Below, piece by piece: positions 2,224-64,000 of a DNA stretch of 64,000 bases; position 1 is the first letter of the stretch; each line of letters begins with the position of its first letter. Where the stretch lies: the NCBI GenBank assembly GCA_015059015.1, contig SVBG01000002.1, forward strand, positions 49,636 through 113,635, given 5' to 3'. The stretch comes from Erysipelotrichaceae bacterium. Lineage in GTDB: Bacteria; Bacillota_I; Bacilli_A; ML615J-28; CAG-313. The notes beneath the pieces are model-generated. The model was not told the DNA's origin and did no database searches. It saw nothing but the letters and a program-made list of their open reading frames with translations. Made by a program: the position numbers and the translations under genes.

Positions 2224-3120
2224 TTAAAATAGAAATTTATTTATAAATTCAATTCTCTTATTGAAAAAATCAATAACAATTGGATGGTTATAACATACAT
2301 CATATCCATGCATTGTCCTTTTAGTATCATTTAATATGCAATCTTTATTTACTAATAATAGTTTGTTATATAGTAAAACACCTTCATCATGTAGACAATC
2401 AAATTCACATACTTCTATATATGTAGGCGGCATATAAGAGATGTCTTGAGTTAATGGATCAAAAATAAAATCACCATTAGAATATATATTCCACATTTTT
2501 TTATTTAGCTTAGAATTCCACATTGGAGTATTAGTATATTTAATTATTGATTCAAAATTTTTATCTTTTGATACAACAGGATATATTAACATTTGATATT
2601 TAGGTAGCATAATATTGTTTTTAAAACATTCATTTATTACTCTTAAACAGATATATCCGCCAGCAGAATCACCACCAAATCCAATATTAGATATATTTAA
2701 ATCTAATGTCTTATAACACTTTAAGATATATTTATATGCATCAAATGAATCGTTTATACAAATTTCATTATTACTTTTATATGCCATACGATAATCTACA
2801 TATATAATTGTTAGATTGGTTCTTTTAATGTATTCTTTTATGTTCTTAAAATGATTAGGTCCACCTTTAAAACAAAAAGCTCCCCCATGAAAATACATCA
2901 AAGTTCCGCAAGACTTATTATTTTTAGGTTCAATTATATATATATTAAAGTTATCTAACTTAATTTTTCTATATTTTGTAAATTTATTATTAAGAGCTTT
3001 TGGTATAAGATTAAGAATAAAATTACCAAAACCAAACATAAAGCGGTTCATTGGACTTTTTATGTATCTCCATATACCAAATTTTTTATCAATATTGTAT
3101 TTCATCAATGTATACCTCAT
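2224..3120 (-). CDS. Alpha/beta hydrolase fold-3 esterase/lipase (HSL-type)
   Basis: HGGAF oxyanion-hole motif and the GDSAGG nucleophile elbow are both present. 298 aa. Confidence 0.8.
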   Translation of the reverse strand: MRYTLMKYNIDKKFGIWRYIKSPMNRFMFGFGNFILNLIPKALNNKFTKYRKIKLDNFNIYIIEPKNNKSCGTLMYFHGGAFCFKGGPNHFKNIKEYIKRTNLTIIYVDYRMAYKSNNEICINDSFDAYKYILKCYKTLDLNISNIGFGGDSAGGYICLRVINECFKNNIMLPKYQMLIYPVVSKDKNFESIIKYTNTPMWNSKLNKKMWNIYSNGDFIFDPLTQDISYMPPTYIEVCEFDCLHDEGVLLYNKLLLVNKDCILNDTKRTMHGYDVCYNHPIVIDFFNKRIEFINKFLF

Positions 3121-3283
3121 TATTATTATACTAAAAATAATAAAATATTACAATAAATCATTATTAAAAACAAAATAATTGGTATATTATTTTATGATAA
3201 AATTATAAAAATTTAAAACTTTTGTAACGTTTTAAAAAAATATGTGTTTTATTAAGTGAAATATTAATAGTGGAGATGAGAAT

Positions 3284-3808
3284 ATGGATTTAGAAAGAAA
3301 ATTAAAGTCTGCTTTAAATACAAATGATTTAGAACAAATAGAAATCGTATTTGAAGAAATATATAATACATATTATAAATTAATATATTTTTGTATTAAT
3401 ACGAATATTAAAAATCATCAAGATGTTGAGGAATTAGTTGATGATGTTTTTATTAACTTTTATAATAATATTAATAAAATAGATATTTCCAATATTAAAT
3501 ATTATCTCACTAAATCTGCTAAAAATATTTCATTAAATTTCTTAAGAAACAATAAAAATAAAAAGTTTATTTTAGATGAAACAGCTGTTTATACTTATCA
3601 AGAAAGTTATATTAACGAAGAATGTGACATAATAGATGATTTAAAAGAAATTCTAACTGACGAAGAAATATATATTCTTTTAGAACATCTTATTTATGGC
3701 AAAAAACTGATTGACTTAGCTTCAGAGTTTTCAATCACTTTTGTTAATATGCGCGTTAAATATCATAGAATAATTAAAAAATGTAAGAAAGGGCTAAATA
3801 TAAAATGA
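3284..3808 (+). CDS. ECF-type sigma-70 family RNA polymerase sigma factor (divergent)
   Basis: 174 aa. C-terminal region-4-like HTH (LIDLASEFSITFVNMRVKYHRI). Stop overlaps the start of the downstream membrane protein in an ATGA overlap, the usual sigma/anti-sigma arrangement. Confidence 0.5.
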   Translation: MDLERKLKSALNTNDLEQIEIVFEEIYNTYYKLIYFCINTNIKNHQDVEELVDDVFINFYNNINKIDISNIKYYLTKSAKNISLNFLRNNKNKKFILDETAVYTYQESYINEECDIIDDLKEILTDEEIYILLEHLIYGKKLIDLASEFSITFVNMRVKYHRIIKKCKKGLNIK

Positions 3809-5872: not shown

Positions 5873-5897
5873 TTTGATTATAATATATGTATAATTT

Positions 5898-6065
5898 TAG
5901 GTCTTTAGCGATAAAGATAATAAGGAACCAAGTGAAAGTCTTGGACTGTCCCAGCAACTGTAATAAAAGACGAACGTTAAATACCATTGAGAATATGTAC
6001 AAATATATTTTTGAGAAGGTGACTAGTAGGATGAAGTTTAAGTCAGGAGACTTGCCTAAAATGTA
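5898..6065 (+). promoter_or_regulatory. Cobalamin (B12) riboswitch
   Basis: Conserved core GGAACCAAGTGAAAGTCTTGGACTGTCCCAGCAACTGTAA matches the cobalamin aptamer consensus (GGGAA..GGTGAAA.TCC...CCCGCAACTGTAA). A B12-box-like AAGTCAGGAGACTTGCC is present. It sits in a 320-nt leader ahead of a DUF4430/CbrT-like pair. Confidence 0.7.
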
Positions 6066-6141
6066 AATAAATAGGAGGAATATTTGATATATAACTAAAC
6101 TGCTCGGGGTTCGGTGAAGTATATAGAAAATAAAAAAATTA

Positions 6142-26886: not shown

Positions 26887-29800
26887 ATGAAGGTTATTAA
26901 AAAAGCATTTTTACTAAGTCTTGTGATAATTGCTTTAATGGTTACACTTGCTTCATGTTCAAAAAAGAAAGTTACACTTTCTGCAGAAAAAAATGAAATT
27001 AGTGTAATTATTGGTGAAAATGTAGATCTTAAACTTTCAGCTACTGAAGTTAAGAAATTTACAGAACAAGACATTCTTGCAAATCTTGATATAACATCAA
27101 GTGATAATAAAATAGTTAAAGTAGAAGCTGATAAAATAACTGCAGTTGGAATAGGTTCTGCAGAAGTAACAGCTACTTGGAAAGAATATGATGGTGCAAC
27201 AGTTACAGTTAAAGTAAATGTAATTGCACCTGAAGTAGGTGAAGTTACTTATTCTACTCTACCTGTTAATGTATATGTTGGAGATAAATTCTCTATTACT
27301 CATGCAGCTAGTAGTGAAGTAACAGTGACTTATACTACATCAAATAAAGATATACTTTCAGTGGATGGTAATAATTTTGAAGCTTTAGCAAAAGGTGCTG
27401 CAAAAATAACTGCTACTGCAACTAATGGTTATAAAGAAACTAAGAAAGAATGGGATGTAGAAGTTCTTCAAGGTGAATATACAATAACATATGTATTAAA
27501 TGGTGGTGTAAACGCAGAAGCAAATCCATCTAAATATGATGTAAGAGAATTACCTTTAATTATTGCTGCTGCTACAAAAGAGCATAAAACATTCTTAGGT
27601 TGGACAAAAGAAGCAGAATCTACAGATTATGTAACTGAAATTGCAGCAGGTGAAGCAGGCGATATTACTTTATATGCACAATTTTCTGATATCGTTCACA
27701 GTATTTCATATGAATTAAATGGTGGTAATTTACCAGAAGAAGCTCCAGTTACATATATTGAAGGCGAAGGAGTACAATTAGTTAATCCAACAAAAGAGCA
27801 TAAAACATTCTTAGGCTGGACAAAAGAAGTAGGTTCTACTGATTATGTGACTGAAATTAGTGCTGAAGAAATTGGAAATGTTACTTTATATGCTAATTAT
27901 GCTGATATTATTCATAATATTACATATGTATTAAATGGTGGAATATTACCAGAAGAAGCTCCTGTCACATACATAGAAGGCGAAGGAGTACAACTAGTTA
28001 ATCCAACAAAAGCGCATAAAACATTCTTAGGCTGGACAAAAGGAATAGGTTTTTCTGATTATATAACTGAAATTAGTGCTGAAGAAATTGGTGATGTTAC
28101 TTTATATGCTGATTATGAAGATATTGTTTATAGTATTACATACGAATTAAATGGTGGAATAAACCCTACGGATGTACCTCTTACTTATATTGAAGGTGAA
28201 GGTTGTGTATTACCAGTTCCTACAAAAGAAGACTATAAATTCTTAGGATGGACTGTAAAATTAACATCTACTGACTATATTACTGAAATAGGAAAAGAAA
28301 CAACAGGTGATGTTAAAGTTTATGCTAAGTGGGAAAAAATAATTGTTTATTCAAATATTGTTTATGAATTAAACGGTGGAACAAATCCTTCAGATGCTAA
28401 AAAGGAATATGAAGAAGGTGTCGGTTATACACTTCCAATTCCAACTAAAGCTAATCATAAATTCTTAGGATGGACAAAAGAAGTGGAATCTACAAATTAT
28501 ATAACTGAAATTGGAAAAGATGCAACAGGTGAATTCAAAGTATATGCTAATTGGGAAAAACAAATTATTAAATCTGCAATTAAATATAATTTAGATGATG
28601 GTCTTTTAGATGACGGCTATGTAACAGAATATACTGAAGGTGAAGTAGTAACATTACCAGTTCCAACAAAAGAAGGCTTTGATTTCTTAGGTTGGTCAAT
28701 TGTAAAAGGTGGTACTTCATACATTAATGAAATTCCTGCTACTGCAACAGGTGAATTTGTTGTTTATGCTAATTGGAAAGAAAAATTAGTTTTATTAGAA
28801 GGTTATAAATATGTTGGCGAAGGATTACACTTTGCTACATTAGATGAAGCTGTTTCAAGTGTTGCTGATGGTGATAAGATTATGCTTCCTGCTGGTGAAT
28901 ATGCATTAAGTGTTGTTATTAATAAGAGTATTGAAATTCATGGACCTAATTCTAATTTACAACCTACAAGCTTTAAATCAGGTGAAGCTGTTATTAATGT
29001 GCAAAAAGATGTAGCTGGTAATATTGCTGCTAAAAACGTAGTATTTAATGGTGTTCACTTAAAAGGTACAGGTGGTGGTGGAGGAATTCCAGGTGTATTC
29101 TTCCAAGATGGTGGTAATATTGAAACACTAAAATTCAAGAGTTGTGTTGTTTCTGATATGAATACATTTATCAAATTCCGTGATTGTACATCTCAAGCTG
29201 AAGTAATTATTGAAGATTGTAATATCCATACTATTGGTCAATTTATTGTTTGGGTACAAGGCGCTCAAACTAAGAAAGTAATTGTTACAGGTAACATTGT
29301 TGATGGTTCTACATGTGGTGCTGTTACTAATACAGCTGCTGCCTTATTTAGAGTTAGAAGTGGTTCATTTGAAGCTTATAATAACTACTTTAAAGGTTCA
29401 TCACAAAATGACCCAGGTTATTTCGAAAGTATTGCAGTTGAATCATATGTTAAATATAATACATTTGAAAATGTAACTAAATTTGCAAATTCTGCTGCAT
29501 CTAACTTATTAGTATTTGATGAAAATTTATATCTTGATGCTAATGGTAAAGTACTAAATGCTGTTCCTAGTCAAGTTTCTGTTAATGGTGTTACTGCCGA
29601 TGTTACTATCGCAACAAGTGAAGAAGATAGAGCTGCTAGATATATTCAACAATTAATATCTTCTAATCCAGATCGTTATTTCGCTGTTGAATATGAATTA
29701 AATGGTGGTACATTAACATCTTCTGCTGTTACTGCTTATGATAAAGAAGTAGGTATTGCTAATCTTCCTACAATTGAAAAAGAAGGATATATCTTCTTAG

Positions 29801-33705: not shown

Positions 33706-36700
33706 ATGAAGTTTTTAAAAAAAGTATCGTTATTAAGTTTTTTATTAATTGGTTTAATTTTTATACTCACTTCATGTTCAAAAAAGAAAGTTACACTTTC
33801 TGCAGAAAAAAATGAAATTAATGTATTGATTGGTGAGGACGTAGATCTTAAACTTTCAGCTACTGAAGTTAAGAAATATACAGAACAAGACATTCTTGCA
33901 AATCTTGATATAACATCAAGTGATAATAAAATAGTTAAAGTAGAAACTGATAAAATAACTGCAGTTGGAATAGGTTCTGCAGAAGTAACAGCTACTTGGA
34001 AAGAATATGATGGTGCAACAGTTACAGTTAAAGTAAATGTAATTGCACCTGAAGTAGGTGAAGTTACTTATTCTACTCTACCTGATAATATTTATGTTGG
34101 AGATAAATTCTCTATTACTTATACAGCTAGTAGTGAAGTAACAGTGACTTATACTACATCAAATAAAGATATACTTTCAGTAGATGGTAATAATTTTAAT
34201 GCATTATCAAATGGTATTGTAAAAATTACTGCTACTGCTAGTAATGGTTATAAAGAAACAAAGAAAGAATGGGAAGTAGAAGTTATTCAAAGTGAATATA
34301 ATATTACATATGTATTAAATGGTGGAAGTAATGATCTTGATAATCCAACTACATATGACATAAGAGAATTATCTTTAGCTATTAATCCCGCAACACATAA
34401 TCATAAAACATTTTTAGGATGGACTGTTGAAGAAAGTTCAAAAGATTATATATATGAAATATCTACAGGTACTACAGGTGATATTACTTTATATGCACAA
34501 TATAAAGATATAACACATAACATCGTTTATAACCTTGATGGAGGAAGACTTCCTAAAGGTTCTCCTTTTAAATATGTTGAAGGTGAAATAACTCAATTAG
34601 TTATCCCTACAAAAGAAGGTTATGTATTCCTTGGTTGGTCAACTGAAATTGACTCTAATACATATATTACTGAGATTGGAGAAGATGCTATGGGCGAAAT
34701 GAAAATATATGCACATTGGAAAAGAGAAAATACATTTGCAGTAATTTACGATTTAGATGGTGGGGTTTCTACTGAATCATATTTACAATCTGCAACTCCT
34801 GCTGCAACACTTGAAGTTAACAATTATAACTATAATGAAGGTGCATATTGGACTGGTACAAATTATAAAAATAATGTATTCTTAGGTCAATCAGGATATG
34901 ATCCTACTGCAACATTCTCTGATCGTATTTATATTGGAAAGGATCCTGTAAGTGGTTTATGGGTTGTTCTTGATATTATTCAATCTGGTCCTTCTTCTTG
35001 GGCTGAAGGTGCTGAATATGTATTAACAATTTCTAATTCACACAATAATAAAGGAACACTTCATTCTATTGTAGTAAATTCAATTAAAGTTGGACAAGTT
35101 GTTTCATTTAGTTGTAATGTAACTGATATGAATCATTCTACTCCTGGTGATGTATACTTCTATAATGATACTCCAAAGGAGTCAATAGTAAGAATGGATG
35201 TTACTCCAGATGATACTTTAATTACACCTTCAAAACTTGGTTCAAGATTTGATGGTTGGTATGATGAAAATGGTAAAAAATATGAGACTATATCTGATTT
35301 AACTGATGATGTTAAATTAATTGCTAAATGGACTCTTCTTACTCAAGTAACTGATATGCAAGTAGATGCAATGACAGAAGAAATGATTACAGGAGACACT
35401 TTCCAAATTTCGGCAAAAGTTCTTCCAACTGATGCATATTTCCAAGAGGTAATATTTACATCTAGTAATCCTGATGTTATAAGTGTTAGTGAAACTGGTT
35501 TAATGACTGCTATTAATGCTGGTACTTGTACAATCACAATTAGAGATTATATGAGTTATGCAGTAAAAAATTATACAGTTACAGTTTACTCAATACCTTC
35601 AATTGATGTTGACTTTGAAGATGAATTTGATGGTATTTTAAGTGTAGGAGAAAAAGTACAAATTCATGCTCACTCGCTTGGTAAAGATACTGAAGATGCA
35701 GAAATATATTATGAATCAAGTAACACTTCAATTGCAACAGTAGATGAAGATGGTTACGTAACTGCTTTAAAAGAAGGTGAAGTAATTATCACAGTAAGTG
35801 ATAATACTGGATCTAACTATAAAGTTAAAATTCAGTTAATTGTTGCTGATCTTGCTACAGAAACTAGAGTAGATCAAGTATTAAAATTAATTGCTGAATA
35901 TAATTTTGCAATCGTTGATGCTGGTAATGCATGTTTATATAATGATGGTACTCAAAGATATTATGACTCAATATATGGTAGCGTTAACTATTTCTTATTT
36001 GCACCTTATGTTGTAGAAGAAAAATATTATGCTAATTCTGATGCTATTACTGATAACTCAAATCACAAAGATCGTCGTGCAGAAGATACAATTGAATTTG
36101 TTACAGTTCATGATACCGCAACTCTAACAGGTACAGTTCATTCAATTGCTTCATCAATGTCAACAGGTGGAACTTCAATTCATTATACAACTGGTAATGG
36201 AGAAATTGTTGGTGTTGTTCGTGAAAAATATCGTGCATATCATGCAGGAGACGGAACTGGTTATTCATTCTCTTGGCTTGCAACTGGTATTAAAGTAGGT
36301 GAAAAAGCTCCAGAATTTGATATGGTTAAAAATGGTAGTACATGGTACTTAACTATTGATGGACAAGTTACTTCAATTTCACTTCCTGTTTCAAATGGAA
36401 CTAAGACAATTGCTAATCCATCAAAAGCACACTTCTCAACATTAGGTCCTTCATATAAAGTTATTGATGGATATTACTATGTAGCTCCATTTAGAGTTGA
36501 CTTCTCACAAGTAGCAGAAGGTTGTATTGGTAACCAAGGTGGAAATAATAACTCTGTTGGTATTGAAATGTGTGTAAATGTATCCGGTGATATATATGAT
36601 ACATGGCAAAGAACTGGTCAACTTGTAGCTGATATTCTTGTTAGAAATGGTTTAACATTAGATAGAGTTAAAGAACACAATACTTGGAGTGGTAAAAACT

Positions 36701-51649: not shown

Positions 51650-52723
51650 ATGGCAAATGTAAAAGTAGCGATCAATGGATTTGGTCGTATTGGTCGTTTA
51701 GCATTCAGACAAATGTTTGGTGCAGAAGGTTACGAAATCGTAGCAATCAATGACTTAACTAGTCCTAAAATGCTTGCAAACTTATTAAAGTATGACACTG
51801 CACAAGGTGGTTATGCTGGATTTATCGGACAAAACTTACACACAGTTGAATCAAAAGAACCTGTATTTGCTGAAGACGGCAAAACTGTAGTTACTCCTGG
51901 TTCAATCACTGTTGATGGAAAAGAAATTACAATCTATGCTGAACCTAAAGCTCAAAATTTACCTTGGGGTGAATTAGATGTAGATGTAGTATTAGAATGT
52001 ACTGGTTTCTATTGTTCAAAAGAAAAATCACAAGCACACATCGATGCTGGTGCTAAAAAAGTAGTTATCTCTGCTCCTGCTGGAAATGATTTACCAACAG
52101 TTGTTTATGGTGTTAACGAAAATATCTTAACTAAAGAAGACAAAATTATCTCTGCTGCTTCTTGTACAACTAACTGTTTAGCTCCTATGGCTAAAGCTTT
52201 AAATGATTTCGCTGAAATTCAATCAGGTATCATGGCTACTATCCATGCTTATACTGGTGACCAAATGATTCTTGATGGACCACACAGAAAAGGTGATTTA
52301 AGAAGAGCTCGTGCTGGTGCTGCTAACATCGTTCCTAACTCAACAGGTGCTGCTAAAGCAATCGGTTTAGTTATTCCAGAACTTAATGGTAAATTAATCG
52401 GTGCTGCACAACGTGTTCCAGTTCCTACAGGTTCAACAACTATTTTAACAGCTGTTGTTAAAGGTGAAAATATTACTAAAGAAGCTATCAACGCTGCTAT
52501 GAAAGCTGCTGCTAGCGAATCTTATGGTTATAATGAAGATCAAATCGTTTCTTCAGACGTAATCGGTATGAGATATGGTTCATTATTTGATGCAACTCAA
52601 ACTATGGTTGCTAAAGTTGGTGAAGGTTTATATCAAGTTCAAGTTGTTTCTTGGTATGATAATGAAAACTCATATACTAGCCAAATGGTTAGAACAATCA
52701 AATACTTTGCAGAAAAATGCTAA
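51650..52723 (+). CDS. gap: Glyceraldehyde-3-phosphate dehydrogenase
   Basis: NGFGRIGR Rossmann fold and SCTTNCLAP active site. 357 aa. AGGAGG RBS. Confidence 0.9.
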
Positions 52724-52730
52724 TTAAAAA

Positions 52731-52765
52731 CTAAACATCTATAGAGAAATCTATAGATGTTTTTT
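52731..52765 (+). terminator. Intrinsic terminator of gap
   Basis: ACATCTATAG-agaaat-CTATAGATGT followed by TTTTTTTT. Confidence 0.75.
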
Positions 52766-52786
52766 TTAAAAAGTTTCATGCAACTA

Positions 52787-52815
52787 TTTACAAATGAATA
52801 AATATATGCTATACT
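52787..52815 (+). promoter_or_regulatory. sigma-A promoter TTTACA-N17-TATACT (cassette copy 1)
   Basis: Hexamers and spacing read directly. Conserved in all four cassettes. Confidence 0.6.
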
Positions 52816-52821
52816 ATAGGT

Positions 52822-52915
52822 GAAGTAATTTGTTTCACTCGTATGAAACTCTTCTTCATTGTTGTAGAAAAGTCCCTTTTATTGAAAAAACTGTTGGAAG
52901 AGGGACTTTTTATAT
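52822..52915 (+). ncRNA. Putative ~90-nt antisense sRNA (type I antitoxin-like), copy 1
   Basis: Predicted from the promoter +1 to the intrinsic terminator GAAAAGTCCC...GGGACTTTTTAT(52868-52915). Contains a GTGAA..TTCAC hairpin and ACTCTTCTTC. Overlaps the 3' end and terminator of the convergent peptide mRNA. Confidence 0.4.
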
Positions 52916-52916
52916 T

Positions 52917-53015
52917 CTACTTCTTTTTGTTCTTTTTTATGGAACTAAGAAGTTTAATCGTTGTGCTTATTAAACTGATTACTTCAGTAATAAGCTTGAT
53001 TATATTAATAAACAT
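52917..53015 (-). CDS. Putative type I toxin-like small membrane peptide, 32 aa (MFINIIKLITEVISLISTTIKLLSSIKKNKKK)
   Basis: ORF conserved in frame across the three cassettes despite nucleotide and amino-acid substitutions. Hydrophobic/amphipathic helix with a Lys-rich tail. Weak RBS GAAAGG lies inside a conserved hairpin (53017-53041). Below the 60-aa ORF-track cutoff. Confidence 0.45.
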   Translation of the reverse strand: MFINIIKLITEVISLISTTIKLLSSIKKNKKK

Positions 53016-53306
53016 TGCTTCTTACCTTTCTTAGGAGAAGCACATTTTTTTATTAATAAGAAATATAATAGTATCATGTGTTATTCTCCTTTCTCATATC
53101 CCCTTCAAATGAGATAAAGAAGAAGAGTACACATCCCCTTGTAGTATAAATAATACTGTATACGAGAGAATCAAATCACCTCATATATATATTTAGCAAA
53201 ACTACCCTAAATTGCTTTTTTTATTTTAAAAAAGTTTTCGACAATAATTAAATGTTAATTAATATATATGTCAGTTAGACAGATAAATTTCTATAGTGTA
53301 TTATCA

Positions 53307-53334
53307 CGGTATCGGAATGGTACCGTTTTTTTTA
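53307..53334 (+). terminator. Hairpin CGGTATCGGAATGGTACCG plus T-run; same element recurs at 58808-58833 (island boundary repeat)
   Basis: Preceded ~60 nt upstream by a promoter-like TTCGACA-N17-AATATA, so it may delimit a ~60-nt transcript. Confidence 0.45.
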
Positions 53335-53345
53335 TTTTTAAAAAA

Positions 53346-53360
53346 GGACAAGTTTTGTCC
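53346..53360. promoter_or_regulatory. Perfect inverted repeat GGACAAgttTTGTCC next to candidate promoter TTGATT-N17-TAAAAT (53368-53396) of the XRE gene; candidate operator
   Basis: Palindrome read directly. A related GGAC-aaaagac-GTCC lies at 53771-53786 ahead of the 719-aa gene. Confidence 0.35.
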
Positions 53361-53530
53361 GAATACTTGATTAAATTAATAATATATGATAAAATAAACC
53401 TATCCATTCGAAATGGTACTAATATCAAAAAATAATATAGAGAAAACTTTTAATAGTTTGTATAAACAATTCAAAAGAATTGTTCAAGAAAACATTTTAT
53501 TTTGAAATGGGTTTGTAAGGAGGTATTAGT

Positions 53531-53743
53531 ATGAATGGATTAATTAACCCTATCACGATTGCTGAAAACATTAAAAAATTGAGACTTTTAAAACAACTAA
53601 CACAAGTAGAAATGGCCGATACATTAGGATATAGTGAAAGAACTATTCGTAGACTAGAAACTAATGGGACATATGACTTATTTGTTGTTAATTTAATTGC
53701 TCAAACTTTTAACGTTTCAGTAGTCAGCATCCTATTTAATTAG
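53531..53743 (+). CDS. XRE-family helix-turn-helix transcriptional regulator, 70 aa
   Basis: AAGGAGG RBS. HTH reads IKKLRLLKQLTQVEMADTLGYSERTIRRLE. Confidence 0.7.
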   Translation: MNGLINPITIAENIKKLRLLKQLTQVEMADTLGYSERTIRRLETNGTYDLFVVNLIAQTFNVSVVSILFN

Positions 53744-53846
53744 GGTGCATTTTTTTATTTTCTTAATATAGGACAAAAGACGTCCTAACACCTTTAAACA
53801 TTTTTGTGATATACTTTTAGTGTGGAAAAATAAAGGTGGTGAAAAT

Positions 53847-56006
53847 ATGAACAATAGATTAGAAAAACATCTTGCGAATAAAGGCTTTTTAGTTATTAGA
53901 CTTAAAGAAGATTTCGATATTGAAAATATATCAAGTGACCATAAAGAAGATTTAATTAATCATATGTTAGTTTCATTCTTAAGTTTAGGATTTAAGTTAG
54001 AAGCAAGTTCAATAGAATTATTAAAAGGATTAGATTTAAAAAATTTAAAGAAGTTCTATTTAAATACTTTTGATTTACTTAAAAACATAAAAGGTGCTCA
54101 TGTAAAACATAAAATATTTTATAGTGATTTCCCAAATATGAAATCATATAAAGATTATGATTATTTTATTAATGCGTTACTACATTATAGTACTGCTAGT
54201 ACTGATGATTATGGATATATGCCATCTGAAAAAAATAATGTTACAAAATATTATTTTGATCAAAATAAAAAACTTACAGAAGTTAAAATACTACAATATG
54301 AAGAGGCTATTAAATATCTATCTACTTATTTTACAACCATGTTAGAAGGTACTAAAGTAATATCATATGAAAATCTAGAATTATTAAAAGCTTTCATGAA
54401 TGATTATCCAGATAAAGTAAAACCTAATATTATTCCATTTAGATGTAATATGGCTTCGTATATCGGTATATATATTGAACGTATGAGAAAAAAGAAAATC
54501 GGAGAAGTATTAGAAAATTTAGATTTATCATTTATTAAAACTTCAACGGATGTATTAAGACTTTATGCGGTAATATCAAAACAAAATGTTGAATTACAAG
54601 ATAAAGTTAAGTTTATAAGTTTAGATAGAAAAGCACGAAAAATTATTCTTAAAATTCTAAATGATATTTCATTAACTAACAAATTTATTATTGATGATTT
54701 AGTAAGTCATGAATTTCTTTGGAAAAGAGCATTTGAATATTTACATGTAGGTGAGTATAAAGAAATATACCCTGAAATATATGATGTTGCAAATAAACTA
54801 AGAAGTGGCGAATATCAAACTTATAATTCTGAATTAACTAAATGTTTAGAAGAAGGCAGTGCTAAAGCTTTTAAACTTTTAATGATTAAACCTGGAATAT
54901 TTGCACGTAAACTTGATTATATCTTACGAAGTAAAAAAATTTCTCATCAAGAAACATTAGAATACTTTAAAAAGTGCTCTAGTGATATATCTACTAATGT
55001 TCTATTAAGTTTATTACAACATTTTAAAAATCGATCTAATACATCACTAACAAGAACAATTATGTACCATAAACCTCATAGTTTTGTTTGTTTAGATATT
55101 GCTGATGAAAGAGATGAAATACCTAGTAATATTTTAGAAGTAGTTATTAATACAATAGAAGAAATATTACAAGATAAATTTATCTCTTATCCATTATTAG
55201 AAAATGTTTACTTAGATGAATGTATGAATAATTATATGATTCCTATTAACAATAAAAATGCTTCAAGTGGTTTTCATACTTTATCGTTTGGATCTAAAAT
55301 AAAACTTAATAGTGACAAAAATATTTTAAGATTCTTTACACATTGGAAAAATAGCCATTTAAGAATTGATATAGATTTATCTGCAGAGCTTTTCAATAGT
55401 GATTTTGAATACATAAATTCATTAGCATGGCATAATATGAAAGGAGGAGAAGACATTGATGCTTATCACTCAGGTGATATTGTAACTGCTCCTAATGGTG
55501 CAAGTGAATTTATTGATATAAACCTTGCTAAAGCAAAAAAGAAGAAAATTAAATATATCGTTATAGCTAATTCAGTATTTACTAATGATAATTTTAAAGA
55601 AATTCCTGAATGCTTTACAGGTGTAATGTTTAAAGATAAAATTAATAAAGATGAACAAGTATTTAATGCACAAGATGTTGAAATAAAAATAGATTTAACA
55701 CAAGATAATACAAATGAATGTTTAGCCTTTTTAGTTGATATCGAAAATATGGAATTAATCTGGTTAGACATCCCGTCATATGAAGAAAATTACTTTGTTG
55801 TAGCAGCAAATGATTACTCATATATATCTGCAGTAATTAAAAAAGCTACATCATATAATATATCAATATATGATTTAGTAAAACTTCATAAAAAACATAT
55901 TTCATTTAATGATAATAAAGATGAAGCATTATTAATTATTGATGATAGCGATAACTCTTTAATAAATCCATACAATCTAGAATTAATTTCTAAAGATTGG
56001 TTATAA
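53847..56006 (+). CDS. Hypothetical protein, 719 aa; no recognisable catalytic or NTP-binding motifs
   Basis: GGTGGTG RBS ahead of the ATG at 53847 (the track's 53820 start is a GTG). Soluble, Lys/Asp-rich. No Walker A/B, HEPN, PD-(D/E)xK or HNH motifs recognised by eye. Confidence 0.65.
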   Translation: MNNRLEKHLANKGFLVIRLKEDFDIENISSDHKEDLINHMLVSFLSLGFKLEASSIELLKGLDLKNLKKFYLNTFDLLKNIKGAHVKHKIFYSDFPNMKSYKDYDYFINALLHYSTASTDDYGYMPSEKNNVTKYYFDQNKKLTEVKILQYEEAIKYLSTYFTTMLEGTKVISYENLELLKAFMNDYPDKVKPNIIPFRCNMASYIGIYIERMRKKKIGEVLENLDLSFIKTSTDVLRLYAVISKQNVELQDKVKFISLDRKARKIILKILNDISLTNKFIIDDLVSHEFLWKRAFEYLHVGEYKEIYPEIYDVANKLRSGEYQTYNSELTKCLEEGSAKAFKLLMIKPGIFARKLDYILRSKKISHQETLEYFKKCSSDISTNVLLSLLQHFKNRSNTSLTRTIMYHKPHSFVCLDIADERDEIPSNILEVVINTIEEILQDKFISYPLLENVYLDECMNNYMIPINNKNASSGFHTLSFGSKIKLNSDKNILRFFTHWKNSHLRIDIDLSAELFNSDFEYINSLAWHNMKGGEDIDAYHSGDIVTAPNGASEFIDINLAKAKKKKIKYIVIANSVFTNDNFKEIPECFTGVMFKDKINKDEQVFNAQDVEIKIDLTQDNTNECLAFLVDIENMELIWLDIPSYEENYFVVAANDYSYISAVIKKATSYNISIYDLVKLHKKHISFNDNKDEALLIIDDSDNSLINPYNLELISKDWL

Positions 56007-56215
56007 GAAATATATCGGCTTATAATAACTTACTTCTATTAATTGAAACAAGAAAATTATAGTTAGTTATTAACTACCCGATTAAATAAGGCTTATGTTT
56101 ACTTACTTCTAAAGCTTTTTATTAATATGTGTTTTAGTAAACAACTTTCCTTATTTTCAAAAAAATTTAATAATTTACTATTTACAAATAGAAATTAATA
56201 TGTTATACTATAAGC

Positions 56216-56312
56216 GAAGTAATTCGTTTCACTCGTATGAAACTCTTCTTCGTTTAGTAGAAAAGTCCCTTTTTTATAAAATTTGGTTTCTAGAGGGACT
56301 TTTTATATTCTA
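56216..56312 (+). ncRNA. Putative antisense sRNA, copy 2
   Basis: As for copy 1. Confidence 0.4.
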
Positions 56313-56408
56313 CTTTTTTTTGTTCTTTTTTATAGAACTTATAAAAGTTGTCATCGCACTTATTAATCTGAATAATTCAGTAATAAACTTGATTATACTA
56401 ATAAACAT
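56310..56408 (-). CDS. Putative type I toxin-like peptide, 32 aa (MFISIIKFITELFRLISAMTTFISSIKKNKKK)
   Basis: In-frame paralog of 52917-53015. Same RBS-in-hairpin arrangement. Confidence 0.45.
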   Translation of the reverse strand: MFISIIKFITELFRLISAMTTFISSIKKNKKK

Positions 56409-56744
56409 TGCTTCTTCCTTTCTTAGGAGAAGCACCTTTTTTTATTAATAAGAAATATAATAGTTTCAAGTGTTTTCTCCTTTCTCATATCCCCTTCAAA
56501 TGAGATAAAGAAGAAGAGTACACATCCCCTTGTAGTATATATAATACTGTATACGAGCAAACCAAATCACTTCATATACATATTTAGCAAAACTATCCAA
56601 AATTGCTCTTTTTATTTTAAAAAAGTTTTCGACACGAATTAAAGTTGATGTGATTGTAGTTGATTGATAACAATATTTAAAATGTAAAATATCTACTTAA
56701 TAAAAATAAGTAGAAGTATAAACTACTTCTACTCATTTTTATAA

Positions 56745-57791
56745 TTATTCATCAATAAATTTTTGTAAATCTTTTATATATAGATTATATAATCCATATA
56801 CTAATTGTTGTTGTTTAATTGCATTATTAGATTGTATAATATCTGTTCCAATTAAGAAAGGAACACCTAAAGCGATTTCGGCTATTGATTTAATATTAAA
56901 TTTAAAATTAGACTTGTTCTTAAATTTTTCGGAAACATTCAAGTTTATTAATTCTTCGTAGAATTTTTCATAATCATTTTTATTTTTTAATTGATTATAA
57001 TCAACTTCAATTTGTGCAATATTATTATTCCAACCATATCTTACTCCATATTTATTAAAGATAATATGATTTGTTGTTAACTTAGAAATGTGATTTACAT
57101 CACCAAGAATTAATATTTTATAATCATTTGAGATGTTATTAAAAAGTTTTTCCCAAGCTTGATTATTAATTATAATAGGTTGTACAGTATTATCACGAGT
57201 ACCAACTATTTCTTTATCGTTTTTATCATCATTTGTAATAATTAAATTTTCTAATTCTTTTCCTATTGAAATATTTTTAGTTACAATAATTAATTTTGAA
57301 ACATCATCACCTAAATTATCTAGGATTTCTTTTTCCATTGAAACTTTTTCTAATTCATTTGTATATTTGTTATTAATATTTTTTCCCAATATATGAATTG
57401 GATCTACGACTGCTCCTAATTGCATAAAAAAATTAAATGTTTTTGGTGGTAATTTAGATACAATTACACCTGCAAAATAAAAACAAGGATGACATTTTCC
57501 TAATATCATTAATAGTTTTTTAATTAATTCTCTTGCTAAATTAGGATCTTTTTCATATAGATTAAAGATATCAATAATTTTTAGTAAATCATTACACTTT
57601 TTAATACTATTAATTTTCGAACCATTTAAACTCAAAAGATTATTAATATCATTAATCTCTTGCTGTTCTAATTCATAATTATTTAATTCACTAATAATAA
57701 AATTAAAACATGCAGCAATATCTTGTTCATTAAATTTATCTATTTTACTTACATCTATTTTAGCCCAATTTGTTTCAATAATGTTACTCAT
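56745..57791 (-). CDS. Hypothetical protein, 348 aa; no recognisable motifs
   Basis: AGGAGA RBS. Own strong promoter TTGAAA-N17-TATAAT on the minus strand (57811-57839). Terminator AGTAGAAGTAGTTTATACTTCTACT lies just downstream on the minus strand. Confidence 0.65.
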   Translation of the reverse strand: MSNIIETNWAKIDVSKIDKFNEQDIAACFNFIISELNNYELEQQEINDINNLLSLNGSKINSIKKCNDLLKIIDIFNLYEKDPNLARELIKKLLMILGKCHPCFYFAGVIVSKLPPKTFNFFMQLGAVVDPIHILGKNINNKYTNELEKVSMEKEILDNLGDDVSKLIIVTKNISIGKELENLIITNDDKNDKEIVGTRDNTVQPIIINNQAWEKLFNNISNDYKILILGDVNHISKLTTNHIIFNKYGVRYGWNNNIAQIEVDYNQLKNKNDYEKFYEELINLNVSEKFKNKSNFKFNIKSIAEIALGVPFLIGTDIIQSNNAIKQQQLVYGLYNLYIKDLQKFIDE

Positions 57792-57810
57792 AGTATTCTC
57801 CTTTTTTTAC

Positions 57811-57839
57811 ATTATATAATAAAATATTTTAAATTTCAA
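57811..57839 (-). promoter_or_regulatory. Near-consensus promoter (TTGAAA-N17-TATAAT) of the 348-aa gene
   Basis: Read on the reverse complement. Confidence 0.55.
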
Positions 57840-57911
57840 TTAATTATATAATCATGACAAAATTTTTAATTTAATATTTACAAAAAGAAATTAATATGAT
57901 ATACTATAAGC

Positions 57912-58000
57912 GAAGTAATTCGTTTCACTTGTATGAAACTCTTCTTCATTTAGTAGAAAAGTCCCTTTTAAAATAATTAGCTGGTTAGAGGGGCTTTTTA
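57912..58000 (+). ncRNA. Putative antisense sRNA, copy 3
   Basis: As for copy 1. Confidence 0.4.
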
Positions 58001-58004
58001 TATT

Positions 58005-58103
58005 CTACTTTTTTTTGTTCTTTTTTATAGAACTTATAAAAGTTATCATCGCACTTATTAATCTGAATACTTCAGTAATAAACTTGATTATACTAATAAA
58101 CAT
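58005..58103 (-). CDS. Putative type I toxin-like peptide, 32 aa (MFISIIKFITEVFRLISAMITFISSIKKNKKK)
   Basis: In-frame paralog of the other two. Confidence 0.45.
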   Translation of the reverse strand: MFISIIKFITEVFRLISAMITFISSIKKNKKK

Positions 58104-58369
58104 TGCTTCTTCCTTTCTTAGGAGAAGCACCTTTTTTTATTAATAAGAAATATAATAGTTTCAAGTGTTTTCTCCTTTCTCATATCCCCTTCAAATGAGA
58201 TAAAGAAGAAGAGTACACATCCCCTTGTAGTATATATAATACTGTATACGAGCAAACCAAATCACTTCATATACATATTTAGCAAAACTATCCAAAATTG
58301 CTCTTTTTATTTAAAAAAAATTTTTGGGTAACTATTTACAAATAAATAAATTTATGTTATACTATTAGT

Positions 58370-58448
58370 AGAAGCAGATTGTTTTCAAACTAAAACTCTT
58401 CTTCTAAAAGAAAAGTCCTTTTCGGGTGTGGACTTAGTTTATTTTCTA
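58370..58448 (+). ncRNA. Putative antisense sRNA of the 4th cassette
   Basis: Runs from the promoter to the shared bidirectional hairpin and T-rich tract. Confidence 0.35.
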
Positions 58449-58576
58449 TTTCTTAAAATGATTTTTAAGAAATTAATGATAGCGGTAATTAGGTTTATAA
58501 TTGCCGCTATTAAACTTATTTTCATAAATCTAACCAATCTCCATTTATTTGGAGGTTTATCATTATCAATGGTCAT
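58439..58576 (-). CDS. Small tail-anchored membrane peptide, 45 aa (MTIDNDKPPNKWRLVRFMKISLIAAIINLITAIINFLKIILRNRK); putative type I toxin variant
   Basis: Strong RBS GAGGAGGTG 8 nt upstream of the ATG at 58576 (the track's 71-aa version starts further upstream without an RBS). One TM helix plus a basic C-terminus. Its 5'-UTR is homologous to that of the 32-aa peptide genes. Confidence 0.5.
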   Translation of the reverse strand: MTIDNDKPPNKWRLVRFMKISLIAAIINLITAIINFLKIILRNRK

Positions 58577-58807
58577 ATGCATCACCTCCTCTAGTATTGA
58601 AGAAGAGTAAACATATCCCCTACACCATCGCTTGAAGTTGCAATCTACTTCCATATATATAATTAGTACAAAGTATTTAAATTGCTCTTTTTATTTAAAA
58701 AAAGTTTTCGACAATAATCGAATATTAATAAATTTGTTGACTCTTATAATTAAATAGTATATAATATAATTGTTAGTTAGACAGATACATTTCTAGAGTG
58801 TATCAAC

Positions 58808-58833
58808 CCGGTATCGGAATGGTACCGGTTTTT
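58808..58833 (+). terminator. Hairpin CCGGTATCGGAATGGTACCGG plus T-run (right-hand copy of the island-boundary element)
   Basis: Same sequence as 53307-53325. Preceded by the same GTTAGACAGATA..TTTCTA.AGTGTAT leader. Confidence 0.45.
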
Positions 58834-58913
58834 ATTTTATATTTAAAAAAATAATTAATTTAACTCAAATTCTTCCATTATATGGTATAATAAATATAGA
58901 TTAGAGGTATAAT

Positions 58914-63049: not shown

Positions 63050-64000
63050 ATGGAAAAATTAAAATATAAAATAATTATAATATTTATTACTGTTTTATGT
63101 ATTTTAAGTGGGTGTAAGAAAAATAATCAACAAGAAAATATATGTTTAGTAACTTTTGATTCTTGTAATGAGACAGAAAATTATAGTGTTCAAGTAGAAA
63201 AAGGAAATAATGTTTCAGAACCCAATGATCCAATTCGTAATGGTTATAAGTTTTTAGGTTGGTATTATCAAGATAAATATTGGAGTTTTATAGGGAACCC
63301 CGTTACAGAAAATATAACATTAACTGCCAAATGGGAAACGATAGAATATAGTATAAAATATGAAAATATAGAAGATTCAACAAATCCTAATCCCAATTTT
63401 TATAATTTAGAAATTGATGAAATAATATTAAATGAACCAATTCGTGATGGTTATGAGTTTTTGGGTTGGTATTATCAAGATGAATTATATAAAAGTATAG
63501 ATTGTTCACTTTTAAAAGATATAACATTAACTGCCAAATGGGAAACGATAGAATATAGTATAAAATATGAAAATATAGAAGATTCAACAAATCCTAATCC
63601 CAATTCTTATAATTTAGAAATTGATGAAATAATATTAAATGAACCAATTCGTGATGGTTATGAGTTTTTGGGTTGGTATTATCAAGATGAATTATATAAA
63701 AGTATAGATTGTTCACTTTTAAAAGATATAACATTAACTGCCAAATGGAATATTGCTGAATATGATATATATTATGAAAATTTATATGGTTCACCAAATT
63801 CGAATCCTTCTTCATTTAATATAGAAACTGAAACTTTTACATTAGAAAATCCAGTACATAAATATTATGAATTTATTGGATGGACATATGAAGGTCAAGA
63901 TACTCCTATAAAAAATGTTGAAGTTAGTAAAGGAAGTCTTGGTGATAAAGTATTTAAGGCTAATTGGCTAAATGTTAGGTTTGAAATAATTGACAATGAA
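63050..64000 (+). CDS. Lipoprotein with Listeria-Bacteroides-type repeats (3' end beyond window)
   Basis: Signal peptide plus lipobox LSGC. Repeated GY.FLGWYYQD...LTAKWE modules. Open to the window end. Confidence 0.7.
   Translation, partial: MEKLKYKIIIIFITVLCILSGCKKNNQQENICLVTFDSCNETENYSVQVEKGNNVSEPNDPIRNGYKFLGWYYQDKYWSFIGNPVTENITLTAKWETIEYSIKYENIEDSTNPNPNFYNLEIDEIILNEPIRDGYEFLGWYYQDELYKSIDCSLLKDITLTAKWETIEYSIKYENIEDSTNPNPNSYNLEIDEIILNEPIRDGYEFLGWYYQDELYKSIDCSLLKDITLTAKWNIAEYDIYYENLYGSPNSNPSSFNIETETFTLENPVHKYYEFIGWTYEGQDTPIKNVEVSKGSLGDKVFKANWLNVRFEIIDNE
63313..63748 (+). repeat. Near-perfect 207-bp (69-codon) in-frame tandem duplication, 2 full units plus a partial third
   Basis: Units starting at 63321 and 63528 differ at one base (TTT/TCT). 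Confirmed by the identical spurious minus-strand ORFs at 63387-63590 and 63594-63815 in the ORF track. Confidence 0.9.

Follow-up and report, generated by a model that had tools for sequence, protein, structure and literature searches.

The fourth unit of a tandem cassette array in an Erysipelotrichaceae genome is probably a diverged copy of a type I toxin-antitoxin-like module

Introduction

Does the fourth unit in a tandem array of small bacterial cassettes carry a cargo of its own, or is it one more copy of its neighbours? The question is raised by a 64-kb stretch of DNA from an Erysipelotrichaceae bacterium (the window, meaning the whole stretch that was analysed), in which four repeat units share the same set of elements. 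Units 1-3 encode hydrophobic peptides of 32 aa, and the fourth encodes a peptide of 45 aa. A preliminary description of the locus took the longer peptide to be a different toxin cargo, acquired by modular exchange on a conserved regulatory scaffold.

The layout recalls type I toxin-antitoxin (TA) modules. [quoted passage not shown] Translation of hok depends on mok (PMC4147584), while at sprG1 two starts in the same frame yield a long toxin of 44 aa and a short one of 31 aa (PMC4147584, PMC10579593). The present analysis addresses the origin of the unit 4 peptide, its upstream reading frame and the RNA elements that surround it.

Results

Organisation of the cassette array

The four units occupy the following positions in the window.

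52769-53263, no strand assigned: unit 1 (subtype A), with the 32-aa toxin MFINIIKLITEVISLISTTIKLLSSIKKNKKK and a 25-aa leader ORF
56163-56654, no strand assigned: unit 2 (subtype A), with a 32-aa toxin and a 23-aa leader ORF that has a TTG start
57859-58349, no strand assigned: unit 3 (subtype A), which abuts unit 4 directly
about 58330-58733: unit 4 (subtype B), the fourth copy of the cassette family

Each unit comprises a plus-strand promoter, a AAACTCTTCTTC box, a hairpin with U-tracts on both strands and a minus-strand block, the consensus of which across the units is GGGGAT(G/A)TGT(A/TT)ACTCTTCTTC. The elements reported for unit 4 in the preliminary description, including its ORF and ribosome-binding site, were all confirmed in position; with promoter, box, hairpin and minus-strand block present, the regulatory scaffold is indeed retained. 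A MITE-like element found no support, as the unit boundaries lack terminal inverted repeats, the inverted arms being internal. A mobile or phage origin likewise found no support, there being zero matches in viral contigs, phage records and plasmid records.

A conserved element of ~95 nt borders the array (window 58737-58838 and 53238-53336, plus strand; also L013 at ~3240-3330). It has a near-consensus promoter, TTGACT-17-TATAAT, followed by a ~65-nt RNA with two hairpins and a strong terminator, CCGGTATCGGAATGGTACCGG-T5. Its fold z-scores were -3.7 and -2.2, it had no Rfam match, and it is a candidate for a novel small RNA. Between cassettes 1, 2 and 3 (window 53531-57791, minus strand) lie an HTH_3 regulator, a 728-aa ORF and a 348-aa ORF, the latter two having no Pfam or PADLOC match. 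Since Candidatus Scatovivens (L019) has the order gap-[B][B]-HAD without this three-gene island, the cassette array seems to be an insertion hot spot. Elsewhere, the window holds a cobalamin riboswitch (5882-6073, plus strand; RF00174, 93 bits) and tandem coding repeats of 216 nt and 207 nt with a GWY-type motif (27574-28221, 34393-34608 and 63309-63929), which are probably surface-protein repeat domains.

The unit 4 peptide is homologous to the 32-aa toxins

The coding part of unit 4 lies on the minus strand.

58439-58576 (including the stop codon), minus strand: 45-aa ORF MTIDNDKPPNKWRLVRFMKISLIAAIINLITAIINFLKIILRNRK, the toxin long form
58439-58525, minus strand: conserved 28-aa core ORF MKISLIAAIINLITAIINFLKIILRNRK, a homologue of the 32-aa toxins that units 1-3 encode
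58526-58576, minus strand: 17-codon extension at the N-terminus, which corresponds to the part of related cassettes that holds the leader ORF
58583-58591, minus strand: strong SD GAGGAGGTG, read from the sequence, 8 nt upstream of the ATG of the 45-aa ORF

As had been described, unit 4 in this genome does encode, downstream of a strong SD, a 45-aa peptide whose C-terminal part is a hydrophobic helix. Residues 18-41 have a mean Kyte-Doolittle hydropathy of +2.1 and are followed by the tail RNRK, as in a small hydrophobic membrane-type ORF; the homologous 32-aa peptides end in KKNKKK. The length of the ORF is by itself unremarkable, as ATG ORFs of at least 45 aa occurred in 11% of dinucleotide shuffles of the 411-nt unit. 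Such an ORF preceded by an SD-like motif was rare, occurring in 0.7% of the shuffles.

The view that unit 4 carries a different cargo did not survive comparison of the peptides. The unit 4 core, ISLIAAIINLITAIINFLKIILRNRK, aligns without gaps to the 32-aa peptide, IKLIAELFRLISAMITFLSSIKKNKK, with 12 of 26 residues identical. The Smith-Waterman score of 60 compares with 27 ± 5 for full shuffles and 29 ± 5 when the hydrophobic body and the basic tail were shuffled separately, and was reached by at most 1 in 5000 shuffles. When a family profile was searched against 1.84 billion representative proteins, only four clusters were recovered, P0003, P0007, P0001 (the 45-aa peptide) and P0009, so that P0001 was placed together with the A, C and D forms alone.

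BLASTN of unit 4 against unit 2 matched only nt 2-93 (74%) and nt 313-389 (83%) of unit 4, the central ~220 nt being beyond its detection. This pattern of shared flanks around a dissimilar centre is what would be seen if an unrelated 45-aa tail-anchored peptide had been brought into unit 4 by modular exchange, and the conserved flanking blocks could act as recombination sites in a tandem array. We nevertheless consider such an exchange very improbable, as the significant, gapless similarity of the core peptide to the subtype A toxins largely refutes it. In addition, units 4 and 2 are colinear, with a 5' box, a strong SD, a short leader frame, a CUCC...GGAG hairpin, the toxin and the terminator in the same order. 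On these comparisons unit 4 brings in no new gene but is a sister copy, diverged in sequence, of the small membrane-toxin/antisense-RNA cassette found in units 1-3.

Distribution and inheritance of the cassette subtypes

A genome-wide scan for the cassette pattern gave matches solely in ruminant-gut MAGs of uncultured "Bacilli bacterium" and in one Candidatus Scatovivens sp. MAG. They fall into five subtypes.

Subtype A: window units 1-3, L004, L007, L008, L013 and L014
Subtype A': L010 and L015
Subtype B: window unit 4, L013, L019 (two tandem copies) and L020
Subtype C: L024-L027
Subtype D: L028

In both L019 and L013, subtype B was found at the same site, flanked by gap on one side and a HAD hydrolase gene on the other. 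When the window is compared with L019 the B cassette is 90.5% identical, which falls between the values for gap (96%) and HAD/asparaginase (87%), whereas the 28-aa core is identical to the two L019 copies at 85-86 of 87 nt. The shared gap-HAD site and the neighbour-like divergence therefore point to an old, vertically inherited paralogue with a constrained core rather than to a recent swap. Both observations tell against the modular exchange, as does the absence of the 45-aa frame from L013 and one of the L019 copies (L019a). The earlier interpretation, cargo exchange on a conserved scaffold, is thus partly supported, with the scaffold standing and the exchange not.

Several copies depart from the common pattern. 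L013 has, at 2860-3200, a decayed subtype B copy in which a 28-nt deletion removes the toxin C-terminus and the stop codon. L010 carries at ~850-1130 an sRNA and an mRNA 5' block without a toxin ORF, an orphan antitoxin, and L004 at ~1-430 a cassette copy without the 5' anti-SD box. The subtype D cassette of L028 (399-700), which lies at the same gap-HAD spot, encodes P0009 (45 aa, MFYKRSPSIMDEKMIVNIIKLISEAIRLISFIINLLLVFIKNKRE). Its box reads ACTATTCTTC in both the sRNA and the mRNA 5' end, the changed A being bulged in the cis hairpin; this parallel change could reflect gene conversion, 5'-3' pairing or a required identity of the two boxes. P0008 (34 aa, E = 0.5) was rejected as a relative, being a small gene in a prophage repressor region without the scaffold features, and the metagenome matches L021 and L022, both inside a coding gene, were discarded as chance.

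A 1-nt difference joins the leader frame to the toxin

In 22 cassette copies covering the five subtypes, a start codon 6-9 nt after the strong SD opens a short frame. In some copies this frame stops no earlier than the toxin AUG and at most 16 nt beyond it (ATGA overlaps occur in L014, L010, L015, both copies of L019 and L013); in the others, namely L004, L008, L013, P0002-P0007, P0009 and unit 4 of the window, it continues in frame into the toxin. The fused forms are 51-59 aa long in subtypes A and C, and 45 aa in subtype D. An upstream overlapping frame, the geometry of hok/mok, was seen in every cassette, and translation of the toxin may be coupled to it. Protein databases contain the fused in-frame versions (51-59 aa) alone; the 32-aa ORFs go uncalled.

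For subtype B the outcome turns on a single nucleotide. Between GGAGGTGAT and TTGATAATGA there are 11 nt in the window (GCATATGACCA) and 10 nt in L013 and L019, a comparison that covers one species with 11 nt and two with 10 nt. In L013 and L019 the ATG opens a separate 17-aa leader, M(S/L)LIM(I/K)NLQ(I/T)NGG(W/L)LNL, which ends in an ATGA overlap with the 28-aa ORF. The window has 1 nt more, and the same ATG is therefore in the toxin frame, so that the short upstream frame is joined to the toxin as the 45-aa ORF of unit 4. In subtype A (for example window 56440-56450, 58135-58145 and 53045-53055) small indels lie between the leader start and the toxin AUG, including changes in the length of a poly(A) run, and these move the leader among all three frames across cassettes. 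A programmed -1 frameshift from the leader into the toxin frame was rejected, since the heptamer G AAA AAC of L019 is absent from the window and L013.

The 45-aa ORF itself was not conserved among homologous cassettes, a point on which the preliminary description had staked the peptide. It is absent from two of three homologous copies elsewhere, where the 17-aa leader is out of frame with the 28-aa ORF, and as such it had no occurrence outside this species in the collections searched, the exact peptide being the sole member of its cluster among 5.8 billion clusters. Within the species it is intact and identical on 8-12 contigs from several samples. The second L019 copy (L019b, from Scatovivens) has an in-frame TTG that would yield a 46-aa form. 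Furthermore, of six variable sites upstream of the core AUG, four are synonymous and two conservative when read in the toxin frame, compared with one synonymous and five non-synonymous in the leader frame. Because of the TTG and the fit of these sites to the toxin frame, the long form may be a real, selected product; that is, it could be the long form rather than the coupled short form on which selection acts.

The toxin mRNA is predicted to sequester its Shine-Dalgarno sequences

Two further features belong to the 5' side of the toxin mRNA.

58599-58620, minus strand: 5' block GGGGATATGTTTACTCTTCTTC of the toxin mRNA, the cis anti-SD arm, in a predicted hairpin that spans about 58574-58620
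58652-58733, no strand assigned: conserved block upstream of the toxin mRNA, common to all four units (repeat family D6, 70-85% identity), with 83% identity between units 4 and 2

The upstream block is likely to be the promoter region of the toxin mRNA; no consensus minus-strand promoter or transcription start was located for unit 4. The predicted unit 4 mRNA (58405-58625, minus strand) folds far better than its shuffles (-57.8 kcal/mol, z = -5.9). In the predicted fold the strong SD (pairing probability 0.88) and some of the start codon are taken up by pairing with the 5' box. The same box:SD hairpin was predicted in all 16 distinct 5' regions folded (SD pairing probability 0.88-1.0) and also in subtype D, with an outer stem that varies between subtypes. 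A second predicted hairpin, CUCC/GGAG, covers the weak SD before the core AUG, and its stem shows compensatory changes in subtype A' relative to A. Fold-back of the mRNA from 5' to 3' through the complement of the box (GAAGAAGAGU, which the mRNA 3' end would have to include) is not favoured by the folding model, in which it is unused in the minimum-energy fold; the box complement lies beyond the terminator U-tract.

A predicted convergent small RNA would share its terminator with the mRNA

On the plus strand, unit 4 contains the elements of a small RNA that would converge on the toxin mRNA.

58335-58363, plus strand: promoter of the predicted antisense RNA, TTTACA-17-TATACT with an upstream TG
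58370-58447, plus strand: predicted sRNA of ~78 nt with predicted ends, a putative antitoxin, consisting of a 5' stem-loop, a CU-rich box and a terminator hairpin
58393-58404, plus strand: CU-rich box AAACTCTTCTTC in the sRNA
58413-58435, no strand assigned: shared bidirectional terminator hairpin, AAGTCC-11 nt-GGACTT, with U-tracts AGTTTATTTT (plus) and TTTTCTTTT (minus)

The TTTACA-17-TATACT promoter is the same in all four units and in all related cassettes. The box occurs exactly four times in the 64 kb, once per unit, and with at most one mismatch gave seven matches where 0.5 were expected; it does not vary among subtypes A, A', B and C. When 21 cassette sRNAs were aligned, 95% of the cells were paired, and the 5' stem had two compensatory pairs, one in subtype B (C-G to U-A) and one in subtype C (A-U to U-A). 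The terminator stem of unit 4 is weak, having only 6 bp, and its predicted sRNA folded no better than shuffles (z = -0.46). Neither the sRNA nor the cassettes had an Rfam match at the gathering score in the whole window, and no Rfam toxin-antitoxin RNA family matched at E ≤ 10 in 52700-58900.

In the DNA, the sRNA box and the mRNA 5' box are perfect inverted repeats of each other over 10 nt. It follows that the two RNAs have identical, not complementary, sequence here and could not pair through the boxes. Their sole guaranteed complementarity is a 40-45-nt overlap at the 3' ends around the shared hairpin, in which the tail of the sRNA, as far as its predicted end goes, extends into the ORF no further than the stop codon and one or two codons before it. 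Elsewhere, the sRNA 5' domain was no better matched to its own mRNA than chance, the proportion of shuffles doing as well being 0.27-0.58, except in subtype D, where it was 0.02; an anti-SD role in trans would therefore depend on generic CU:GA pairing. A hairpin arm of the subtype B sRNA is complementary to the core AUG region, and this was likely due to chance because the similar 6-9-nt matches in A and A' are inconsistent between subtypes. Compared in inverted orientation, the 5' part of the sRNA is about 75-80% similar to the stretch upstream of the mRNA box, which suggests, as a reading of the sequence, an old inverted duplication. Concerted evolution of the two inverted arms of a cassette was not supported, as an identity matrix grouped sRNA arms with sRNA arms and mRNA arms with mRNA arms.

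The weak sRNA hairpin and the mRNA promoter, which is not recognisable, would both be expected if unit 4 were decaying or neutralised, the fusion having abolished leader-coupled control or toxin activity and the unit persisting mainly as an sRNA gene or a relic. Decayed relatives are known (the B copy of L013, one unit of L010 and one of L004), and the exact 45-aa ORF is restricted to one species. We consider this unlikely. The ORF is maintained without change across contigs from several samples, its core has diverged far less from the L019 copies than the cassette as a whole, the predicted mRNA structure is very stable and still occludes the SD, and fused long forms are common in other subtypes.

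Comparison with known toxin-antitoxin systems

The par locus of the Enterococcus faecalis plasmid pAD1 (Fst/RNA II) and SprA1/SprA1AS of S. aureus are alike to the cassettes in having two short convergent RNAs with a bidirectional terminator in common, an overlap that barely touches the ORF, and a hydrophobic toxin of ~30 aa with a charged tail (PMC4147584, PMC4885055, PMC8594479). In par, however, the 5' direct repeats DRa and DRb make the RNAs complementary where translation of the toxin starts, whereas the repeats here are inverted and give both RNAs the same sequence. With this orientation, and with duplex energies no better than those of shuffles, par-like 5' complementarity was rejected. 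The Fst family profile was not recovered either: the only Pfam or NCBIfam match at E ≤ 10 was a sub-threshold one to DUF5316 (17.8 bits against a cut-off of 28.7), which reflects composition, and membership of that family was rejected. The cassette antitoxin also had no match to the RNA II covariance model (Rfam, E ≤ 10, 52700-58900).

TxpA/RatA and SprG1/SprF1 resemble the cassettes in that the antisense RNA overlaps the 3' end of the mRNA and interacts with it via the overlap, and the 44-aa/31-aa pair of SprG1 is the closest analogue of the 45-aa and 28-aa forms described here (PMC4147584, PMC10579593). These systems differ in that the overlap predicted for the cassettes is only ~40-45 nt and goes just to the stop codon, and there is no sequence similarity. 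Unlike in SprG1, the upstream start is mostly out of frame and so opens a separate leader.

The hok/mok/sok system of plasmid R1 offers the precedent for an overlapping upstream frame with a regulated SD, and for a nascent mRNA kept inert by intramolecular pairing (PMC4147584). Sok, in contrast, is antisense to the mok start region, whereas the sRNA here is antisense to the 3' end and has no specific 5' complementarity. Moreover, hok/sok is a Gram-negative family, Hok is unrelated, and coupling in the cassettes is deduced only from frame geometry.

The LDR elements of E. coli (ldr/rdl) are units of ~500 bp, found in tandem and elsewhere on the chromosome, each with a ~35-aa toxin and its own antisense RNA. 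The cassettes are similar as tandem units of about this size with a toxin and a small RNA; in LDR, however, Rdl lies at the 5' side inside the mRNA, and there is no sequence relationship. Given a convergent layout that lacks complementary 5' repeats and any family match, the cassettes are therefore filed as a variant within type I TA-like modules, under no named family.

Discussion

The 45-aa peptide of unit 4 had been thought to represent a new cargo on an old scaffold. We conclude that unit 4 is probably a diverged paralogue (subtype B) in a family that resembles chromosomal, multi-copy type I TA modules, in which the leader and toxin frames are joined to give 45 aa. The homology of the core, the relation of the frames, the conserved predicted hairpins and the promoter and terminator motifs are shown by the comparisons above; transcription, toxicity, coupling and sRNA action we infer from them, as follows.

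The minus strand would give a highly structured mRNA of ~220 nt, in which the 5' CU-rich box would fold onto the strong SD and start codon and so leave the nascent transcript untranslated. On opening of this hairpin, initiation would take place at the strong SD, and ribosomes would translate the leader across the second hairpin. The leader would end at the AUG of a small, hydrophobic, basic-tailed peptide or shortly after it. Re-initiation may occur at this AUG, and toxin synthesis would then depend on leader translation as that of hok does on mok. In cassettes whose two frames coincide, the product would instead be a long form extended at its N-terminus; in this genome the 1-nt length difference would set the leader start in the toxin frame and lead to the 45-aa form. 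From the plus strand, a strong conserved promoter would produce the ~78-nt sRNA, converging on the mRNA at the common terminator and fully complementary to ~40-45 nt of its 3' end, up to the stop codon. This sRNA would most likely act as antitoxin via the 3' duplex, by RNase III-type decay or by refolding, and its CU-rich anti-SD box could additionally mask purine-rich SDs in trans.

The cassettes might instead encode a small membrane protein that does no harm, alongside a convergent regulatory sRNA, or be repeated intergenic elements with another RNA role. Toxin function is a prediction from sequence, the cassettes have no Pfam, NCBIfam, Rfam or PADLOC match, and no specific 5' complementarity between sRNA and mRNA was seen. 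In our view this is quite unlikely, for a hydrophobic peptide of 28-32 aa with a polybasic tail, combined with a sequestered SD and a convergent sRNA that shares its terminator, is typical of Gram-positive type I modules, and likewise typical are tandem multi-copy arrays that include decayed and orphan-sRNA copies (PMC8594479).

A stronger version of the TA-like reading is put forward only tentatively and is, if anything, doubtful. According to it, the cassettes would be a new Gram-positive type I family in which the sRNA, as an inverted duplicate of the mRNA 5' region, acts as a silencer in trans besides its 3' overlap, and in which a mok-like leader is toggled by single-base indels between a short (28-32 aa) and a fused (45-52 aa) toxin.

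Had cargo been exchanged on a fixed RNA scaffold, the locus would have offered a neat example of modular evolution; the claim does not hold. What unit 4 belongs to instead is a compact cassette family, unannotated in all libraries and collections searched and limited to a small clade of uncultured gut Bacilli, that joins features known separately from par, SprG and hok/mok. The loci illustrate what gene callers miss, in that the databases hold the fused long forms and not the short ones. Single-base indels alter which peptide a cassette makes, and natural variants of the coupled, fused, decayed and orphan-sRNA kinds are at hand within the family.
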